Source: a virus (taxonomy: Duplodnaviria; Heunggongvirae; Uroviricota; Caudoviricetes). From it: DNA of 32,944 bases. The DNA lies in the IMG/VR virus record IMGVR_UViG_2648501787_000007. One strand, given 5' to 3'. Under the pieces are notes generated by a model. That model had not been told where the DNA came from, ran no database searches, and was given only the letters and a program-made list of their open reading frames with translations. Position numbers and translations under genes: made by a program. The first letter of the stretch is position 1; each line of letters begins with the position of its first letter. Positions 3,627-22,106 of this stretch are shown here, piece by piece.

Positions 3627-3955
3627 CAGTTCACCACCTGTTCAAACTCTGCGCTGAACTCAACACGCAGCATACTGACCCGCGACGACCATTTTGCGCA
3701 GGTCACCTTTATCTGCCGCCACTCATAAGGCGGCGTCCACAGAAAGGCTTTCCAGCCCCCGTGCTCAGCCAGAAACGACTCAAGCGCCGTGGCCTCCCAA
3801 CGGGGAACAGAAAGCGTCACGCTGTACGTTTTCAGGTCGGCATTCAGCCCGGCAGGCGCTCGCTGGGAATAGCCATCACCAAAGCGCACCTTTCTTACGG
3901 AAGGGGCCGAAGCCACATCCATACCGGGTTTCACTTTCCAGCGGAAGGTTTTCAT
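3626..3955 (-). CDS. M: Tail tip protein M
   Basis: 109-aa ORF MKTFRWKVKPGMDVASAPSVRKVRFGDGYSQRAPAGLN..., matches lambda M. Confidence 0.95.
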   Translation of the reverse strand: MKTFRWKVKPGMDVASAPSVRKVRFGDGYSQRAPAGLNADLKTYSVTLSVPRWEATALESFLAEHGGWKAFLWTPPYEWRQIKVTCAKWSSRVSMLRVEFSAEFEQVVN

Positions 3956-6513
3956 CGTCCACCTCCGGAGAACAGACCACCATCGCGCATCTGCCCGGTC
4001 ACAACATCCATTGCCGCCTTACGGGCTACGTCATAAACCGCCTTCAGCGCCTGTGGCCCTATCTGACCGTTCGTGCCGTCGTTGTTAATCACCACATGGT
4101 TATTCTGCTCAAACGTCCCGGACGCCTGCGAGCGGCTGTCCGCCATGCTGCCCGGTGTACCGACATAACCGCCGGTGGCATAGCCGCGCATCAGCCGGTA
4201 GAGATTTCCCACGCCAATCCGGCTGGTTGCCTCCTTCGTGAAGACAAATTCACCACGGTGAACAATCCCCGCTGGCTCATATTTGCCGCCGGTTCCCGTA
4301 AATCCTCCGGTTGCAAAATGGAATTTCGCCGCAGCGGCCTGAATGGCTGTACCGCCTGACGCGGATGCGCCGCCACCAACAGCCCCGCCAATGGCGCTGC
4401 CGATACTCCCGACAATCCCCACCATTGCCTGCTTAAGCAGAATTTCTGTCATCATGGACAGCACGGAACGGGTGAAGCTGCGCCAGTTCTGCTCACTGCC
4501 GGTCAGCATCGCCGCCATATTCTGTGCAATACCATCAAAGGTCTGCGTGGCTGCACTTTTTACCTGCGACATACTGTCCGTGGCGCTCTCTTCCCACTCA
4601 CTCCAGCCGGACTTCAGGCCTGCCATCCAGCTCCCGCGAAGCTGGTCTTCAGCCGCCCAGGTCTTTTTCTGCTCTGACATGACGTTATTCAGCGCCAGCG
4701 GATTATCGCCATACTGTTCCTTCAGGCGCTGTTCCGTGGCTTCCCGTTCTGCCTGCCGGTCAGTCAGTCCCCGGCTTTTCGCATCAATGGCGGCCCGTTT
4801 TGCCCGTTGCTGCTGTGCGAATTTATCCGCCTGCTGCGCCAGCGCGTTCAGGCGCTCCTGATACGTAACCTTGTCGCCAAGTGCAGCCAGCTGGCGTTTG
4901 TACTCCAGCGTCTCATCTTTATGCGCCAGCAGGGATTTCTCCTGTGCAGACAGCTGGCGACGTTGCGCCGCCTCCTCCAGTACCGCGAACTGACTCTCCG
5001 CCTTCCACAAATCCCGGCGCTGCTGGCTGATTTTCTCATTTGCTCCGGCATGCTTCTCCAGCGTCCGGAGTTCAGCCTGAAGCGTCAGCAGGGCAGCATG
5101 AGCACTGTCTTCCTGACGATCGCCCGCAGACACCTTCACGCCGGACTGTTTCGGCTTTTTCAGCGTCGCTTCATAGTCCTTTTTCGCCGCCGCCATCAGC
5201 GTGTTGTAATCTGCCTGCAGAATTTTCCCGTCCTTCAGTGCCTTGTTCAGTTCTTCCTGACGGGCGGTATATTTCTCCAGCGGCGTCTGCAGCCGTTCGT
5301 AAGCTTTCTGCGCCTCTTCGGTATATTTCAGCCGTGACGCTTCAGTATCGCTCTGCTGCTGCGCATTTTTGTCCTGTTGACTCTGCTGTTCAGCCTTCTT
5401 TCTCGCGGCTTCAAGCGCAAGACGGGCCTTTTCACGATCATCCCAGTAACGCGCCCGCGCTTCATCGTTAACAAAATAATCATCCTTGCGCAGACTCCAG
5501 ATGTCGTCCGCTTTCTTAAACGCAGCCTCTGCCTTAATCAGCATCTCCTGAGCGGTATCAGGACGACCAATATCCAGCACCGCATCCCACATGGATTTGA
5601 ATGCCCGTGCTGTCCTGTCTGCCCAGGTCTCCAGCGTACCCATGTTCTCTTTCAGGCGGCGGGTCTGGTCATCAAATCCTTTCGTCGCGGCCTCGTTCGC
5701 CGCCTGCAATGCCCCGGCTTCATCGCCGGAACGCTGCAACTGAGCAACATACGCAATCTGCTCCGCCGTCACGTTATGGAACTGGCGTGCCATCGCTGTC
5801 AGCCCTGACGTCGGGTCTGTGGTCAGCTTCCCGAAGGCTTCAGCGACCTTGTCCACCTCCACGCCGGATGCAGAGGAGAAACGCGCCACACTCTGGCTGA
5901 TGGATGCAATCTGAGCCTCACCGCTTACTCCCGCCTTAACCAGTGCGCTGAGTGACTCGCTGGTCTGGTTAAACGTCAGCCCTGCCGCCTGCCCGGCTCT
6001 GGACAGGACCAGCATACGATCTGCCGTCAGACCCGACTGATTGCCGGAAAGGACCAGCGTTTTGTTGAAATCGGACAGGGTTGAGTTGCCCTGATACCAG
6101 GCATACGCCAGCGCACCGGTCGCCACCGCCAGCGAGGTGGCCCCGACCATCGGCAGGGTGATCGCACCGGCAAGCCCCCTGAACATGGGGATCATCCCGC
6201 CGAAGGAGTCCTTCACCTGACCACCCTGTTGCAGCAGGATCAGCCACGGACTTTGCCCGCCTGCAAGCTGCGTGGCCACGTCGGTGAACTGCGCAGGCAG
6301 CATACGCATGGCAGCTTTATACTGCCCGACGGAAATCCCCGCTTTCTGTGCAGCCAGTGCCTGTCGCCTCAGCGACTGTTCAACGACTGCCGCTGTTTTT
6401 TTCGCATCACTTTCCGTACCGGAAAAATGACGCCTGACTCTGGCCATCTGCTCGTCAAATCTGGCCGCATCCAGACTTAAATCAACGACCAGATCGCCTA
6501 CCGGTTCAGCCAT
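3952..6513 (-). CDS. H: Tail tape measure protein H
   Basis: 853-aa ORF MAEPVGDLVVDLSLDAARFDEQMARVRRHF..., coiled-coil and Gly-rich C-terminus, same length as lambda H. Confidence 0.97.
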   Translation of the reverse strand: MAEPVGDLVVDLSLDAARFDEQMARVRRHFSGTESDAKKTAAVVEQSLRRQALAAQKAGISVGQYKAAMRMLPAQFTDVATQLAGGQSPWLILLQQGGQVKDSFGGMIPMFRGLAGAITLPMVGATSLAVATGALAYAWYQGNSTLSDFNKTLVLSGNQSGLTADRMLVLSRAGQAAGLTFNQTSESLSALVKAGVSGEAQIASISQSVARFSSASGVEVDKVAEAFGKLTTDPTSGLTAMARQFHNVTAEQIAYVAQLQRSGDEAGALQAANEAATKGFDDQTRRLKENMGTLETWADRTARAFKSMWDAVLDIGRPDTAQEMLIKAEAAFKKADDIWSLRKDDYFVNDEARARYWDDREKARLALEAARKKAEQQSQQDKNAQQQSDTEASRLKYTEEAQKAYERLQTPLEKYTARQEELNKALKDGKILQADYNTLMAAAKKDYEATLKKPKQSGVKVSAGDRQEDSAHAALLTLQAELRTLEKHAGANEKISQQRRDLWKAESQFAVLEEAAQRRQLSAQEKSLLAHKDETLEYKRQLAALGDKVTYQERLNALAQQADKFAQQQRAKRAAIDAKSRGLTDRQAEREATEQRLKEQYGDNPLALNNVMSEQKKTWAAEDQLRGSWMAGLKSGWSEWEESATDSMSQVKSAATQTFDGIAQNMAAMLTGSEQNWRSFTRSVLSMMTEILLKQAMVGIVGSIGSAIGGAVGGGASASGGTAIQAAAAKFHFATGGFTGTGGKYEPAGIVHRGEFVFTKEATSRIGVGNLYRLMRGYATGGYVGTPGSMADSRSQASGTFEQNNHVVINNDGTNGQIGPQALKAVYDVARKAAMDVVTGQMRDGGLFSGGGR

Positions 6514-12637: not shown

Positions 12638-16318
<3,681 letters not shown>

Positions 16319-16344
<26 letters not shown>

Positions 16345-16864
16345 TCAGCAACCCCGGTATCAGTTCATCCAGCGCGGCTGCTTTGTTCATGGCTTTGATG
16401 ATATCCCGTTTCAGGAAATCAACATGTCGGTTTTCCAGTTCCGGAAAACGCCGCTGCACCGACAGGGGGATCCCGTCGAGAATACTGGCAATTTCACCTG
16501 CGATCCGCGACAGCACGAAAGAACAGAATGCGGTTTCCACCACTTCAGCGGAGTCTCTGGCATTTTTCAGCTCCTGTGCGTCGGCCTGCGCACGCGTAAG
16601 TCGATGGCGTTCGTACTCAATAGTCCCTGGCTGGAGATCTGTCTCGCTGGCCTGTCGCAGTTCTTCAACCTCCCGGCGCAGCTTTTCGTTCTCAATTTCA
16701 GCATCCCTTTCGGCATACCATTTTATGACGGCGGCAGAGTCATAAAGCACCTCATTACCCTTCCCACCGCCTCGCAGAACGGGCATTCCCTGCTCCTGCC
16801 AGTTCTGAATGGTACGGATACTCGCGCCGAAAATGTCAGCCAGCTGCTTTTTGTTGACTTCCAT
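16319..16864 (-). CDS. Nu1: Terminase small subunit Nu1
   Basis: 181-aa ORF MEVNKKQLADIFGASIRTIQNWQEQGMPVLRGGGKGNEVLYDSAAVIKWYAERD..., matches lambda Nu1. Confidence 0.97.
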
Positions 16865-17060
16865 TGTTCATTCCACGGACAAAAACAGAGAAAGGAAACG
16901 ACAGAAGCCAAAAAGCCCGTTTTCAGCACCTGTCGTTTCCTTTCTTTTTAGAGGGTGTTTTAAATAAAAACATTAAGTTACGACGAAGAAGAACGGAAAC
17001 GCCTTAAACCGGAAAATTTTCATAAATAGCGAAAACCCGCGCGCCTTCCGCCCCGTAACG
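16865..17060 (-). other. cos: cos region: cosN near 17042-17053 plus cosB terminase-binding region upstream of Nu1
   Basis: Minus strand reads ...CGTTACG GGGCGGAAGGCG CGCGGGTTTTCGCTATTTATGAAAATTTTCCGGTTTAAGGCGTTTCCGTTCTTCTTCG..., nearly identical to the lambda left-end/cosB sequence as recalled. Confidence 0.7.
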
Positions 17061-17232
17061 TTCTGGATCGCCGGAAAGGACCCGAAAATGATAATACATA
17101 TCAATTACACTTAAAGGGGGGGGGTTAATTTGTTCACATCAACACTCCGGACCCCAATGGCCTTCTACTCTGGTTTTGCCATAAAATAGTCCTGATACAT
17201 ATTCATATCAGTTAGTCATATACGGAAAAAAT

Positions 17233-17559
17233 ATGGGCATTACTATTTTCAGCAGTGAAATACAGGATGTTGATAGCGAAGCGATGTACAAGAGTTGGCT
17301 AGCAACCCATTCCGATGGATTCGTTATTAATCTGCTTAAGTCGGCCAGCGGGAAAGGCAGAAAAAATGATGCCAGATTTACGCGGATTCATCGAGCCTCA
17401 TGCAAATCAATCAACCCGTTAATCAGCCCAAAAAATCACGCCGGCTTTACTACTGGCCGATACCAAAAAGTATGTGTTCTTACGCTTGACGAGGCCGAGT
17501 CCACCGCAGGCCAACTAACAGGACTGCCAACCATCCAGAGATGTCATTGGTGTATATAA
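17233..17559 (+). CDS. Hypothetical 108-aa protein in the cos-proximal AT-rich island
   Basis: ORF MGITIFSSEIQDVDSEAMYKSWLATHSDGF...IQRCHWCI; no recognisable family, weak ribosome-binding site. Confidence 0.35.
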   Translation: MGITIFSSEIQDVDSEAMYKSWLATHSDGFVINLLKSASGKGRKNDARFTRIHRASCKSINPLISPKNHAGFTTGRYQKVCVLTLDEAESTAGQLTGLPTIQRCHWCI

Positions 17560-17603
17560 GATACTGCAGTTACGATGGGCCTGCCCATGATGACGGAATA
17601 ATA

Positions 17604-17622
17604 AACCGCCAAAAAGGCGGTT
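17604..17622. terminator. Bidirectional intrinsic terminator-like hairpin between convergent ORFs
   Basis: AACCGCC-AAAAA-GGCGGTT inverted repeat flanked by T-rich tracts on both strands, between the ORF ending 17559 (+) and the ORF ending 17624 (-). Confidence 0.45.
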
Positions 17623-17623
17623 A

Positions 17624-17911
17624 TTAAATTTGACCTCTTGACTTTTCTATTTCATAAAGACCCACTCCATCTCCTGCATCAAGCAATGCATAATATTCAG
17701 GGTCTTTAATTCGATCTATCTGATTTGAAATTTCAAGTAACTCATCCTTTAAAGAATCTACTTCAGAGGCTAATCTTTCATTTTCATCCCTCAGCTCCCT
17801 AACTTCTTGCTGTAAAGACAGTAAGCTCTTCCCGGTTGCTGGAAATCGGTTTATCTCATGCCAGATTGCAACTATTAAAGCTAATACCGCAACGGTTAAA
17901 GATGTCATCAT
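17624..17911 (-). CDS. Hypothetical 95-aa protein, N-terminal transmembrane helix plus coiled coil
   Basis: ORF MMTSLTVAVLALIVAIWHEINRFPATGKSLLSLQQEVRELRDENERLASEVDSLKDELLEISNQIDRIK...; hydrophobic N-terminus then heptad-like charged segment. Confidence 0.4.
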   Translation of the reverse strand: MMTSLTVAVLALIVAIWHEINRFPATGKSLLSLQQEVRELRDENERLASEVDSLKDELLEISNQIDRIKDPEYYALLDAGDGVGLYEIEKSRGQI

Positions 17912-18018
17912 TGGTCTCCCTTTACTTTACAGGATATAGCACCATCACAGACACTCTACGAGATCCTGTGATGGTGAGATTAGAATGGAGGCTGTCTATG
18001 GTGATGCACCTGTGGATG

Positions 18019-18558
18019 TTATGATTTTTCGATCATTTTTATTACATTTTTGGCTGGCTTAATTTTCATCGTATCGCCGGTAGCAAGGTGCACAAGCAAC
18101 ATTAATTTGCGAACGTTGCCGCCCTGTTCCCATATCTTATTTTTCATATCTCTGGCCCAGTCGCCATTAGTATCATTTTGAATAAAGAAAAATGCATATT
18201 CGCCATGCTCAATTTTTTTTGGTAAATCGTCACCAAACCCACCCCCCAGAATCTGAAGTAGTGAGTTTTTTGTACCGAACGTCCATGTTACTGAAGTTAT
18301 AGTTGCGGTTTGAATGCCAACATTTGCAATGTTGATCGTAACTCCAAACGTGCTCACATTTTGGCCTGTGATGCCCCCAAGCGATACTGTTCCTCTTAAC
18401 TTCGGTCGAGGTCGACGGTTAGAAATATATAAAGTCAGGCATACTGCCATAAAGGTTGCAATGCCTGAAAACCACGTTCCTACCATTGACCAAAAAGCCC
18501 ATTCTGCTGTATTTCTAGTGGCAACCAATGATTCGTAAGCTATATAATCTGCGTTCAT
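18019..18558 (-). CDS. Hypothetical 179-aa membrane-anchored protein
   Basis: Internal ATG at 18558 preceded by GAGGTG Shine-Dalgarno; MNADYIAYESLVATRNTAEWAFWSMVGTWFSGIATFMAVCLTLYI... with one predicted TM helix; the ORF-track N-terminal extension to 18762 crosses a GC-rich segment that is probably non-coding. Confidence 0.45.
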   Translation of the reverse strand: MNADYIAYESLVATRNTAEWAFWSMVGTWFSGIATFMAVCLTLYISNRRPRPKLRGTVSLGGITGQNVSTFGVTINIANVGIQTATITSVTWTFGTKNSLLQILGGGFGDDLPKKIEHGEYAFFFIQNDTNGDWARDMKNKIWEQGGNVRKLMLLVHLATGDTMKIKPAKNVIKMIEKS

Positions 18559-18876
18559 CTTCACCTCATTTATCGATGAAGTGATTGTAACTAAAAGCAT
18601 TATCGCAAGCACTAAGTGAATGCCAACCACACTCTCGCAGTAGCTGCGCTCATTCCCTTGAGGCCATGTGTCAGGGGTATCTCGTGAATCCCTCACCACT
18701 AACCGGAAGCTGACTGGCGACCAGCCTGGAGTACCGGTGCGCTTCTTCCCGTTACCCCTCACCAGTACGCCCTCAGCTTTTTACCTGAGACTGGCTACCC
18801 GCAACTTTGGGTATTCGGGGCAGCATCATGACTGCTGCATTGGCGCCACTTGCCACGGTCCGTCCGCTTTACTGCT

Positions 18877-19134
18877 TCATAGCTTGATCCTCTCTGCTTC
18901 AATTTTTCGAATATCAGCTTTATCTCGGTTACAGGTCGCCAGCGCGGAAAGCAGACTGACATTCAAATCCAGACTGCCCCCATAGGTCAGCGGATCAGGA
19001 ATAACTGGTTGTGGGGTCTCAGTGGTCAGATTCGCCGGTAGCGGTACCGCTGGAACTGGTACGTAAACTGTCCGCGTACCGGCGCAGCCGTTCAGCTGCA
19101 CGAGCAGGAACAGGACGGGCAGCGCAATCATCAT
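18877..19134 (-). CDS. Rz1: o-spanin (Rz1-like outer-membrane lipoprotein), overlapping the 3' end of Rz in another frame
   Basis: From internal Met: MMIALPVLFLLVQLNGCAGTRTVYVPVPAVPLPANLTTETPQPVIPDP...; signal peptide, Cys lipobox-like site, proline-rich, starts inside Rz. Confidence 0.6.
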   Translation of the reverse strand: MMIALPVLFLLVQLNGCAGTRTVYVPVPAVPLPANLTTETPQPVIPDPLTYGGSLDLNVSLLSALATCNRDKADIRKIEAERIKL

Positions 19135-19411
19135 TCGCAACAGCCGTTTTGATATCTGTCTGGGTTCTCTGTGACTCCAGTGCAATCTGCTGTTTTGCAT
19201 GCTGGCTAGCCTCCAGAACTGTATTGACGATTTGCAGTGATTGCAGGACGTTATTGGTAATGACAGTTGCCGATTTGGCATTTTGTACAGCCTCATCAGC
19301 ACGTTTCTTTTCGTGCTGATATTTGCTGTAGTAGTGGTTGGCAGACCAGATGAAAGAACCGATGACAGTAACGAGAAAAGCAGCGATAACCAGCTTATAG
19401 CTCAACTTCAT
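19019..19411 (-). CDS. Rz: i-spanin (Rz-like), N-terminal TM helix and coiled coil
   Basis: 130-aa ORF MKLSYKLVIAAFLVTVIGSFIWSANHYYSKYQHEKKRADEAVQNAKSATV... immediately downstream of the endolysin. Confidence 0.8.
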   Translation of the reverse strand: MKLSYKLVIAAFLVTVIGSFIWSANHYYSKYQHEKKRADEAVQNAKSATVITNNVLQSLQIVNTVLEASQHAKQQIALESQRTQTDIKTAVANDDCAARPVPARAAERLRRYADSLRTSSSGTATGESDH

Positions 19412-19871
19412 TTACCACCCCACCAGCCTCTTTAAATCGGGAAATCAGGTCACCGATTTTATGTTCATACTGACCGTAACCTGCTCCGGGTAACGAAGCC
19501 CAGATATTGCTGCAACAGTCGATTGCCTGACGGATGTCACCGCGATCAATCATTAGTAAAGCACCACGCTCCTTAATCTGCTGCAATGCAACAGCATCCT
19601 GGCTTTTAGGAGAGAAGTCTGTCAGCCCTAACTGCTTGCGGTAAGCATCCCACCAGCGTGAAAGAAGTTGATAACGGCCTGCGGCTGTTGATTTGAGTTT
19701 CGGGTTTAGCGTGACAAGTTTTCGAGGGTGATCGGAGTAATCAGTGAAGAGTTCGCCACCGACAATAACGTCATAACCGCGGTTACGTGTCGGTTGTCGC
19801 ACGTTATCCGTTCCTTCTGACCACGCCAACATATCGAGGAAAGCTTTACGCTGAGGATTAAGATTTTGCAT
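19395..19871 (-). CDS. R: Endolysin R (lambda-type lytic transglycosylase)
   Basis: 158-aa ORF ...QRKAFLDMLAWSEGTDN...GYDVIVGGELFTDYSDHPRKLVTLNPKLKSTAAGRYQLLSRWWDAYRKQLGL..., matches lambda R. Confidence 0.95.
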   Translation of the reverse strand: MQNLNPQRKAFLDMLAWSEGTDNVRQPTRNRGYDVIVGGELFTDYSDHPRKLVTLNPKLKSTAAGRYQLLSRWWDAYRKQLGLTDFSPKSQDAVALQQIKERGALLMIDRGDIRQAIDCCSNIWASLPGAGYGQYEHKIGDLISRFKEAGGVVNEVEL

Positions 19872-20175
19872 TTTTCACCCCTGTCAGTCGTTCCCAGAAG
19901 TACGTCAGTGCAACCGAGCCCATCGCACCACTAATCCCCGCTGTCGCGAGAATCATGTAAATACTGAATCCACTTTCGATACTGATCAGGCCACCAATAA
20001 CACCGGTGAATCCCGATACCACTATCTGAGCCAGAGCATTTATCCAGCTCCACGTTGCTTTACTTTGCTTCACATCTATCAGATAGCGGACCAGACCGCC
20101 CCAACCTGCGATGATCAGCAAAACGAGCCAGAACGCTCCGGCAAGGCTCTCTTTTTCGTGCATATGAATAGCCAA
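19858..20175 (-). CDS. Holin (not lambda S by sequence; possible dual start MAIHM)
   Basis: 105-aa ORF with three hydrophobic segments, immediately upstream of and overlapping the endolysin start. Confidence 0.65.
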   Translation of the reverse strand: MAIHMHEKESLAGAFWLVLLIIAGWGGLVRYLIDVKQSKATWSWINALAQIVVSGFTGVIGGLISIESGFSIYMILATAGISGAMGSVALTYFWERLTGVKNAKS

Positions 20176-20391: not shown

Positions 20392-21195
20392 ATGACAGAA
20401 AAAGATAACATTGGTAAGTTAATTTGGCATATTGCTTGCGATGAATCTGGCATTGATGGGCAACGTTTCTACGGCTTTGGCAGTCTGTGGATGAAGTACC
20501 AACGCCGTGGGGATTTCTGTCAACTAATCAGAGAACTACGTAGCAAACATGGTTTTTTTGAAGAAATAAAATGGCAAAAAGCCCATTCAAAAAGATACTC
20601 TGAATTTTATCTTGAGCTGATCGACTTATTCTTTAGAGTTCCTTGGCTAGCTTTTCATTGTATCGTGGTTGAAAAATCAATAGTAAACAAGACATTTCAT
20701 AATGGGGATTATGACCTGGCAAGGAGAAAGCACTTCACAAATCTCATTACCACAAAAATTAGCTCTGTAATTTCTGCACACCCTGAAAGAGACAGTTACT
20801 TCAGGATTGAAGTTGATCCTATCGCATCTCGTTATAAAAAGGCCGATGAAGAACTAAATGTTATTGCCAATAACATATTGAATAGAAAATTTGGTCGTAA
20901 AGGGATAATCAGCAGTGTAGTGACAAAAGACTCTAAAGCATCTGAAAACATTCAGCTAGCCGATTTTTTCTTAGGTGCGGTTATGTGCGCATATCAAGGA
21001 AAAGCTTCATCTGAAGCCAAAATAAGAGTATCAAACTATGTTGCTTCATATTTAGGCTGGGATCATTTGCAATATGATACATGGCACACTGAGAGAAAAT
21101 TTAATATCTGGTATTTTTATGATAAAACTCGAGGGCCACGAGATATAGAAACTCAAAATGTTAGCTTAAAGTATCCACTTCCCCAAAAGAAATAG
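20392..21195 (+). CDS. DUF3800-like protein (putative RNase H-fold hydrolase), moron gene antisense to the late leader
   Basis: 267-aa ORF MTEKDNIGKLIWHIACDESGIDGQRFYGFGSL... with N-terminal DESG and C-terminal IQLADFFLGAV motifs recalled as typical of DUF3800; AT-rich; opposite strand to all flanking late genes. Confidence 0.45.
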   Translation: MTEKDNIGKLIWHIACDESGIDGQRFYGFGSLWMKYQRRGDFCQLIRELRSKHGFFEEIKWQKAHSKRYSEFYLELIDLFFRVPWLAFHCIVVEKSIVNKTFHNGDYDLARRKHFTNLITTKISSVISAHPERDSYFRIEVDPIASRYKKADEELNVIANNILNRKFGRKGIISSVVTKDSKASENIQLADFFLGAVMCAYQGKASSEAKIRVSNYVASYLGWDHLQYDTWHTERKFNIWYFYDKTRGPRDIETQNVSLKYPLPQKK

Positions 21196-21416: not shown

Positions 21417-22106
21417 TCAATCCAGTTTTGCAATACTTTGCTGTGAAAATGTCGTCTTTTGTTTTGAACGTGTTCTCGTTACAAGCAATAAAGCTTCGCT
21501 ATCAAGCTGTAGAAAAATGTGCTTCATTGCAACCCAGCGTTCAGTAAATGTCTCAGACCAGTTTTTTGATGTCACTCCCACCAGTGATGCCAGCTCCTGG
21601 TATTCATAGGTCTTACGCCCTGCCAGCTCGTTCTTCACATCCTGTGCCGCCAGCCAGATCAACTTCTTCAAACGTTCCAGTGTCTTACCTGCAATTTTTC
21701 TGGTACCCAACAGAGTCTTAAACTCGCTCCATGCCCACTGCGTTATGGTGACCTGATGTTCCCAGCGAACACTTTCGCTGTAACTCCACAGCAACCACGC
21801 TTTCTGATGTTCTTCGAGAGACAGAACCGCGCGGCGCCATGACGAGGTTGAGAACTCAACCTGGCTTACCAGTGCAATGGATGAACCTTTTGCGTACGAC
21901 TGCTTACCGGAAATCGGCGGATTATCCAGCGTAATCATCCTGCCAGTTACCTCATCCAGAATGCGCAGCTTCTTTCGTTTGTATTTACCAGTATCAAATT
22001 GTGCATGCTCCAGCCAGGCTTCAAGCTGTCCTTTCGTTGCTCCGCTCAAATCAGCGGTAGCCACAATGAGTTGCTCGCGGACATACTGTAAATATTGGGT
22101 ATTCAT
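21417..22106 (-). CDS. Putative late-gene antiterminator Q (not lambda Q by sequence)
   Basis: 229-aa ORF MNTQYLQYVREQLIVATADLSGATKGQLEAWLEH... between rusA and a pR'-like promoter and lysis cassette; assignment by position, not by sequence. Confidence 0.55.
   Translation of the reverse strand: MNTQYLQYVREQLIVATADLSGATKGQLEAWLEHAQFDTGKYKRKKLRILDEVTGRMITLDNPPISGKQSYAKGSSIALVSQVEFSTSSWRRAVLSLEEHQKAWLLWSYSESVRWEHQVTITQWAWSEFKTLLGTRKIAGKTLERLKKLIWLAAQDVKNELAGRKTYEYQELASLVGVTSKNWSETFTERWVAMKHIFLQLDSEALLLVTRTRSKQKTTFSQQSIAKLD

Follow-up and report, generated by a model that had tools for sequence, protein, structure and literature searches.

Three conserved, unannotated gene families in an AT-rich island between the lysis and packaging genes of a lambda-like Escherichia coli prophage

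The island and its boundaries

The DNA analyzed here (the window) is a stretch of 32,944 nucleotides from a virus of the Caudoviricetes (IMG/VR record IMGVR_UViG_2648501787_000007), whose minus strand carries the late genes of a lambda-like Escherichia coli prophage. The gene order, taken from the open reading frames (ORFs) of the window and from an identical prophage annotated in RefSeq, comprises the holin, endolysin, and spanin genes of the lysis cassette, followed by cos and the terminase genes (Table 1). Between Rz/Rz1 and cos/Nu1, at the position of bor in lambda, lies an AT-rich island with a GC fraction of 0.38 to 0.44 (about 17000 to 18650), compared with 0.52 to 0.58 in both flanks. 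The island contains three ORFs, referred to here as ORF108, ORF95, and ORF179 according to the length of their products. It is real but ordinary prophage cargo, made up of three unannotated gene families. An initial annotation made from the sequence alone had described an AT-rich island with these three ORFs, including the terminal RCHWC cluster of ORF108, an N-terminal transmembrane (TM) helix and coiled coil in ORF95, a single-pass membrane protein with a good Shine-Dalgarno (SD) sequence in ORF179, and a bidirectional terminator between the convergent pair; this inventory is borne out by the data presented below.

Genome comparison defines both edges of the island. On the left, similarity to other lambda-like cos regions ends near 17110 to 17115, next to a run of nine G residues. 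This run has 8 G in strain SCU-301 and is interrupted (GAGGGAGG) in strain C4, and it may be a hot spot for slippage or recombination. On the right, similarity to other prophages restarts at about 18620, where the boundary coincides with the 3′ end of a structured RNA element that overlaps the −35 hexamer of the promoter-like site before ORF179.

Table 1. Features of the island and its surroundings (window coordinates unless a contig is named)
Feature	Position	Strand	Description
Terminase large subunit	14419-16344		
Nu1	16319-16864		
cos	about 16900-17110		
AT-rich island	17116-18620		~1.5 kb, between cos/Nu1 and Rz/Rz1
G9 run	17116-17124		cos-side island boundary (genome comparison)
Promoter-like site before ORF108	17176-17203	+	sigma-70 type, TTGCCA-16-CATATT, only a 9/12 consensus match
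ORF108	17233-17559	+	108 aa, ends ...QRCHWCI
Bidirectional intrinsic terminator	17604-17622	both	AACCGCC-AAAAA-GGCGGTT, T-rich tails on each strand
ORF95	17624-17911	-	Anchor plus leucine zipper
ORF179	18019-18558	-	179 aa, single-pass membrane protein, Ig-like sandwich
Promoter-like site before ORF179	18599-18626	-	sigma-70 type, TTGGCA-16-TG-GATAAT, 10/12, extended -10
Structured RNA	18625-18844	-	~220 nt, nhmmer E = 1.6e-55; outside the island, forms its right-hand border
Mini-ORF	18869-18880	-	ATG AAG CAG TAA, three codons; overlaps the Rz1/LysC stop codon, abuts the RNA element
Rz1/LysC	18877-19200	-	Overlaps Rz (window ORFs/RefSeq)
Rz	19019-19411	-	Window ORFs/RefSeq
GH24 endolysin	19395-19871	late-gene (-) side	Window ORFs/RefSeq
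Holin	19858-20175	late-gene (-) side	Window ORFs/RefSeq
DUF3800 gene	20392-21195	+	AT-rich accessory insert
Q	about 21417-22106	-	
ORF179-family gene, tail slot	L034, 3100-3636		
ORF179-family genes, tail slot	L070 and L074, about 3870-4507		

The three genes are under purifying selection and move independently

All three ORFs are real genes under purifying selection, as their homologs and their ratios of nonsynonymous to synonymous substitution rates (dN/dS) show. Full-length homologs with identities of 33 to 99% were found for ORF179 (10 homologs), ORF108 (18), and ORF95 (23), and dN/dS, calculated only where dS was unsaturated, is 0.13 to 0.32 for ORF179, 0.14 for ORF108, and 0.07 for ORF95. 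Conserved motifs are evident in the alignments of all three families, and AlphaFold2 (AF2) models are confident, with predicted local distance difference test (pLDDT) values of 85 and 90. The genes are thus conserved across related prophages, whereas a lack of such conservation had been named in the initial annotation as grounds for abandoning its interpretation. RefSeq includes ORF95 and ORF179, but ORF108 is often missing from it, as in strain C4 and several other genomes.

Of 5426 complete E. coli genomes, 5 have the whole island, and three others have only an intact ORF108 segment at this position. In one of these three, strain C4, which was examined, an intact 108-aa ORF lies by itself between nohD and Rz, with a flank 97% identical to that of the window. 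Other relatives of the prophage have different cargo after the same RNA element. In SCU-301 (L001, 6133 to 6501, corresponding to window positions 17233 to 17601) the ORF108 stop codon is changed from TAA to TCA, which adds 14 residues and gives a product of 122 aa.

Beyond these close relatives, homolog contexts were looked up in public assemblies and IMG/VR contigs. Each family recurs in the lysis-to-terminase slot of unrelated temperate Enterobacterales phages, with varying partners. Relatives of ORF179 and ORF108 co-occur in the window, in a Raoultella contig (L006), and in a Cedecea contig (L032). Searches of annotated phage genomes with tblastn retrieved one relative of ORF179 (gp56 of Pantoea phage AH07) and one of ORF108 (in Klebsiella phage ST846-OXA48phi9.2), both annotated as hypothetical proteins, and none of ORF95. 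None of the three proteins matches a Pfam, NCBIfam, or PADLOC family above threshold, and scans of these libraries and of PHROGs returned only generic coiled-coil matches for ORF95 and PHROG 16957 for ORF179. Because the partners differ, the strands are opposite, and occurrence is mostly solitary, the island is read as three independent cargo genes at one hot spot. The families are independently mobile and nearly always land in the same slot; they are not taken to form one operon or system.

ORF179 belongs to a large family of single-pass membrane proteins

ORF179 is composed of a short acidic N-terminal tail, a TM helix (about residues 20 to 44, the only hydrophobic segment in the hydropathy profile), a basic RRPxPK linker, and an Ig-like beta-sandwich of 130 aa. 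Its ATG is an internal start within a longer ORF of 247 aa that opens with GTG, and the sequence GAGGTG lies 4 nt upstream of this ATG. The shorter form is taken as real because its homologs measure 176 to 190 aa. The 247-aa version (P0001) was rejected, since the start of the homologs corresponds to the internal ATG and the additional N-terminal codons overlap the RNA element.

An exhaustive profile search retrieved 976 cluster representatives at an E value of ≤1e-3, 234 of them at 1e-10, so that the family comprises no fewer than 976 clusters (50% identity). Nearly all representatives measure 165 to 200 aa and share the same layout. Among 60 diverse members sampled for architecture statistics, none contains a meaningful Pfam domain, and 43 match PHROG 16957 (best E value, 2.1e-14), a phage protein family that includes members of the ORF179 family and carries no functional annotation. 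ORF179 itself matches this PHROG in the TM region only (E value, 4.8e-7). Conservation within the family is highest in the TM helix, which has the consensus W..GTW.AG.AT..AV..SL and is rich in Gly, Ser, Thr, and Ala; the spacing of these small residues suggests helix-helix packing in the membrane. The mean number of Lys plus Arg residues in the 60 members is 0.67 before the TM helix and 3.8 in the 15 residues after it. By the positive-inside rule, which is the basis of the topology proposed here, the protein would be oriented N-out/C-in with a cytoplasmic sandwich.

Structure comparison of ORF179 matched only generic Ig-like folds. Among known proteins the nearest are ApaG/DUF525 and other Ig-like beta-sandwiches, together with archaeal type IV pilins and FlaF/FlaG, which combine an N-terminal helix with a sandwich. 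Membership in the ApaG/DUF525 sequence family, as distinct from similarity of fold, was not detected, and profile searches of the PDB with ORF179 and ORF108 gave no significant match.

Relatives of ORF179 lie 3′ of the spanin gene and in the same orientation in Citrobacter HK97-like prophages, in a Raoultella P22-like prophage, in a metagenomic contig, in Pantoea phage AH07 (gp56), and in about ten distinct IMG/VR contexts, whose terminases are of the lambda, HK97, and P22 types. The family member of at least three contigs lies instead between the gene for the major tail protein and those for the tail chaperone and tape measure (Table 1), near the tail-gene moron slot in which HK97 carries gp15. 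This second location argues that the gene is cargo and not a core part of the lysis machinery. HK97 gp15 was considered as a relative and rejected, as it has only 62 aa. A scan of genome contigs for the context of the family yielded only 3 loci, and a cluster look-up of distant relatives returned almost no taxonomy.

ORF95 combines an N-terminal anchor with a leucine zipper

The only hydrophobic segment of ORF95 in the hydropathy profile (residues 2 to 16) falls within a strongly hydrophobic stretch at residues 2 to 17, which forms an N-terminal anchor. This anchor is followed by a nearly invariant IWHEINRFPAT motif and by a zipper of six heptads in a perfect pattern, with L33, L40, L47, L54, I61, and I68 in d positions and V37, N44, V51, L58, and I65 in a positions. 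In GCN4, a buried Asn at an a position favors a parallel, in-register dimer. The a-position residue N44 is invariant in the ORF95 family, and by analogy ORF95 is predicted to be a parallel dimeric leucine zipper. The C-terminal motif DPEYYxLLDxGDGxGLY is also conserved. No Lys or Arg precedes the anchor; R22 and K28 lie after it.

Homologs of ORF95 occupy the same slot in prophages of Citrobacter, Enterobacter, and E. coli with other partners, 3′ of the lysis genes and usually followed by a convergent DUF6953/DUF2158 pair. An identity as an Rz-type i-spanin was not supported, the matches to Rz-like PHROGs having E values of only 0.03 to 0.09; the phage already encodes both Rz and Rz1/LysC.

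ORF108 is a soluble protein with invariant cysteines

ORF108 is transcribed against the late operon. Its hydropathy profile contains no hydrophobic segment, which indicates a soluble protein, and H53, C57, C81, C104, and C107 are invariant in the family alignment. The fold is predicted with confidence and has no detectable relative in the PDB or BFVD. Relatives of ORF108 are always on the strand opposite to the late genes in the lysis-to-terminase gap, and many are divergently oriented to the small terminase gene, with about 50 nt between the two. They adjoin Terminase_2 genes or lie near ParB and Mom genes; in Yersinia, ParB-like and Mom genes separate the ORF108 relative from the small terminase gene.

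Transcription signals

The convergent ORF108 and ORF95 genes are separated by a GC-rich terminator hairpin of 7 bp with T-runs on both strands. Candidate promoters are found before ORF108 and before ORF179, the latter spanning the right island boundary (Table 1). The island would comprise two transcription units that converge on this single bidirectional terminator. The first would run in the late-gene direction from the promoter-like site through ORF179 to ORF95, and the second would run in the opposing direction from the other site through ORF108. Promoter use is in both cases predicted from candidate sites.

Interpretation of the island

The best overall explanation, which we regard as fairly probable, is that this segment would be a moron slot, a mosaic of accessory genes where the lysis cassette meets the packaging genes, filled with two convergent units and three independently moving families. 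The morons of lambdoid phages are a concept of Hendrix and Juhala, exemplified by HK97 gp15 and lambda lom. Of the features by which morons are recognized, the island has a deviating base composition and presence or absence among close relatives (the complete island in the five genomes, ORF108 only in C4). As for a promoter and terminator of its own, the terminator is clear, and the promoter-like sites, with 10/12 and 9/12 matches, are candidates that do not exceed in number those of shuffled sequence.

The initial annotation had proposed a superinfection-exclusion or envelope-modifying moron set. The accessory nature of the genes holds, given their foreign composition, their presence or absence, and their recurring slot, while the notion of one set gives way to three independent families. 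Envelope modification is disfavored: no signal peptide, lipobox, or enzyme domain was found, the ORF179 domain would be cytoplasmic by its charges, and ORF108 is soluble. In our best guess as to function, the products are not envelope-modifying enzymes.

Under the moron-slot explanation, the products would be dispensable factors, with ORF108 acting in the cytoplasm and the other two on the cytoplasmic side of the inner membrane. ORF179 would be anchored in the inner membrane by its small-residue-rich helix, which would probably mediate oligomerization, and would present an Ig-like protein-binding sandwich to the cytoplasm. ORF95 would be a membrane-anchored parallel dimeric zipper with a conserved C-terminal peptide motif, and ORF108 a soluble zinc-binding alpha/beta protein. 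They would hinder other phages, by exclusion or abortive infection, or adjust a late stage of the phage's own infection. Superinfection exclusion is only a reasonable guess, because nothing in the island resembles known exclusion or defense proteins.

Several points weigh against this explanation. Comparison with PADLOC-DB 2.0 and with SieA revealed no similarity to any characterized exclusion or defense protein: ORF108 and ORF179 match no defense model of PADLOC-DB 2.0, and ORF95 gives one weak coiled-coil match (LmuB; E value, 0.005). Zinc binding by ORF108 is a prediction from residue conservation alone. The promoter-like sites of the region are no more numerous than expected from shuffled sequence, which makes them candidates only. 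The ORF179 homologs of four other phages have no promoter-like site in front of them and start 24 to 100 nt past the preceding spanin or lysis-region gene. Late co-transcription with the lysis genes is likely in those phages and fits them better than expression in the lysogen.

The main rival, which we consider fairly unlikely, holds that ORF179, possibly together with ORF95, is an unrecognized accessory of the lysis cassette, made late from pR′ along with the holin, endolysin, and spanin. Its TM helix would tune holin triggering, endolysin release, or the membrane events of lysis, in the manner of an antiholin or releasin; phage Mu encodes a single-TM-domain releasin downstream of its spanins. 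Consistent with such a role, the family member is co-oriented with the lysis genes in most independent contexts and mostly takes the first or second place behind the spanin gene, upstream of the terminase, across lambda-like, HK97-like, and P22-like backbones, including the four phages in which it has no detected promoter of its own. In one contig (L024), a strong terminator lies directly 3′ of the gene, and the TM helix is the part best conserved across the at least 976 clusters. These observations have to be set against the tail-gene location in at least three contigs (L034, L070, and L074) and against the wide variation of the adjoining cassettes, which include several holin families, canonical and signal-anchor-release (SAR) endolysins, and both GH19 and GH24 enzymes. 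Moreover, the near-identical prophage of C4 has the same holin and GH24 endolysin and lacks ORF179, so ORF179 is not needed by that cassette, and in the window the gene lies 320 nt from Rz1 with a promoter-like site of its own.

A second alternative concerns ORF95, which could mimic FtsB/DivIC (PF04977), enter the FtsQLB complex of the divisome, and block or delay host division. The resemblance extends to size (about 95 to 103 aa) and to the order of an N-terminal TM anchor and a leucine zipper, and the DPEY motif after the zipper presumably sits at about the position of the C-terminal motif of FtsB/DivIC. DivIC is the most frequent family match, found for all 21 of the aligned ORF95 family members (best E value, 1.9e-6), and the ORF95 profile matches FtsB chains from solved structures along some 60 residues (8bh1_E, E = 0.007; 25hr_E/8p1u, E = 0.013). 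However, every DivIC match falls below the Pfam gathering score (23.0 bits for ORF95 versus 28.9) and equals in strength those to generic coiled coils such as NEMO, C/EBP, and GCN4. Alignment by hhalign to an approximate E. coli FtsB sequence gave only 30% probability over 36 columns, and the NCBIfam matches to FtsL and FtsB have E values of only 0.025 and 0.15. The C-terminal motif differs from that of FtsB, and the charges flanking the anchor do not indicate an N-in/C-out orientation; with no basic residue before the anchor, the zipper may lie in the cytoplasm, which is the wrong side of the membrane for FtsQLB. Division mimicry thus appears quite improbable.

Equally hard to sustain is the proposal of a functional ORF179-ORF108 pair, such as a membrane effector with a cytoplasmic zinc-finger regulator or sensor, in which ORF95 would be an unrelated passenger. 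Both families are rare, and divergent copies lie within 1 to 2 kb of each other in three backbones, namely, the window, the Raoultella contig (43% and 53% identity), and the Cedecea contig (37% and 50%). The two genes are nevertheless always on opposite strands, their order and spacing vary, and each is commoner without the other than with it. ORF108 occurs alone in E. coli C4, in prophages with the Leclercia-named P0024, in Klebsiella, and in Yersinia, and ORF179 occurs alone in Citrobacter, in Pantoea, and in many IMG/VR contigs. One common insertion hot spot suffices to explain their co-occurrence.

Finally, the possibility that the ORFs are chance frames in AT-rich noncoding filler or decayed remnants, to which the omission of ORF108 from several RefSeq genomes and the lack of a Pfam family for any of the three might point, is refuted by the conservation data, that is, by full-length homologs with conserved motifs, the low dN/dS values, confident AF2 models, and the 976 clusters of ORF179.

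A structured RNA element borders the island

The RNA element outside the right edge of the island occupies most of the 320 bp between Rz1 and ORF179, which is consequently not filler. It is present in 18 of the 5426 E. coli genomes and in 32 IMG/VR contigs; a second pattern scan of IMG/VR added no new members. The only isolated phage with a full copy is mEp237, where the element lies unannotated between Q and gp56. An alignment of 25 distinct copies supports a structure of 59 pairs in 13 helices, including one pseudoknot, with 94% of cells paired. Compensatory changes are seen at 18 pairs, compared with a mean of 9.4 in shuffled alignments (none of 500 reached 18) and with 4 to 10 in register-shifted controls. 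Covariation thus supports the element as a conserved structured RNA.

Every copy lies in the sense orientation, in one of three contexts: at the start of the PL transcript, downstream of Q, or downstream of Rz1. Copies in the PL context come first on the transcript, ahead of boxA and an N gene. In 18 of the 25 copies, an SD sequence and a mini-ORF of 2 to 3 codons end exactly at the 5′ edge of the RNA, and in 11 an intrinsic terminator lies just upstream of the SD sequence and mini-ORF. Two contigs (L047 and L064) have a 17-nt direct repeat, ACTCACCAGGACGGTGA, flanking the element between the PL start and nutL boxA, which suggests that it was inserted or recombined as a discrete module. The last ~37 nt, comprising the two 3′ hairpins, match other phages by themselves with 95 to 97% identity (Klebsiella phage phiKO2, 50768 to 50804; Providencia phage PSTCR7lys, 2221 to 2259; Klebsiella phages RothC and RothD), and this 3′ part may be an independent module.

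No model of Rfam (release 15; 4227 covariance models) reached the gathering score anywhere in the window, and permissive filters yielded only eukaryotic snoRNA and miRNA models, with a best E value of 0.8. HK022, the carrier of the put antiterminator RNAs, has no copy of the element, and an identity with put was rejected at the sequence level. In a literature search the core sequence was not found, and a paper on a prophage small RNA (Pas) does not mention the element.

Other features of the prophage

The o-spanin of the window is of the overlapped (LysC-like) type, starting inside Rz and ending 142 nt past the Rz stop codon, unlike the fully embedded o-spanin of lambda. The same prophage has a second accessory insert, an AT-rich DUF3800 gene (GC, 0.35 to 0.39) between Q and the holin gene on the strand opposite to the late operon. 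This gene matches the PADLOC candidate defense model PDC-M04A with an E value of 7.8e-35.

Implications

Accessory genes that change host fitness, virulence, or phage resistance are known to settle at the lysis-to-packaging junction of lambdoid prophages. The island adds to them three conserved protein families without annotation in the libraries searched and offers a few inexpensive candidates for cloning in tests of exclusion and lysis timing. The ORF179 family is large and almost always lies directly after the spanin, which points to a specific, testable role in lysis or exclusion. This post-spanin family and the neighboring RNA are most worth an experiment, and the RNA may be the more unusual object. 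In a more novel reading, which we consider unlikely, the ORF179 family would be an unrecognized fourth component of the lysis cassette in phages of Gram-negative bacteria, or a widespread late membrane effector; independently of this, the RNA would be a new class of lambdoid riboregulator.

Comparison with known systems

The superinfection-exclusion protein SieA of P22 is an inner-membrane protein with three (or four) TM domains and a conserved FxRYPxEAxxFNK motif (PMC10883804). ORF179 resembles it as a small (about 160 to 180 aa) prophage-encoded inner-membrane protein without a signal sequence, and it could plausibly block the entry of DNA at that membrane. However, SieA has three predicted TM domains and the motif, whereas ORF179 has one TM domain and a beta-sandwich and shares no sequence similarity with it. 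ORF95 likewise has a single hydrophobic segment, and the motif is present in neither protein. The sieA gene belongs to the immI region and does not follow the lysis genes.

The closest parallel in position is lambda bor, which also lies between Rz/Rz1 and cos. Bor is unrelated to the island proteins in sequence and architecture, as these have no lipoprotein signal or lipobox; the N termini of all three lack the Bor/Iss signature of a basic n-region followed by L-x-x-C, and ORF95 contains no cysteine. HK97 gp15 is an annotated moron product with its own terminator, also unrelated to the island proteins. Like the morons of lambdoid phages, the island combines foreign composition, presence or absence in near-identical phages, flanking promoter-like and terminator sites, and small, presumably nonessential genes. 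It differs from lambda bor and HK97 gp15 in that three families are stacked in two convergent units.

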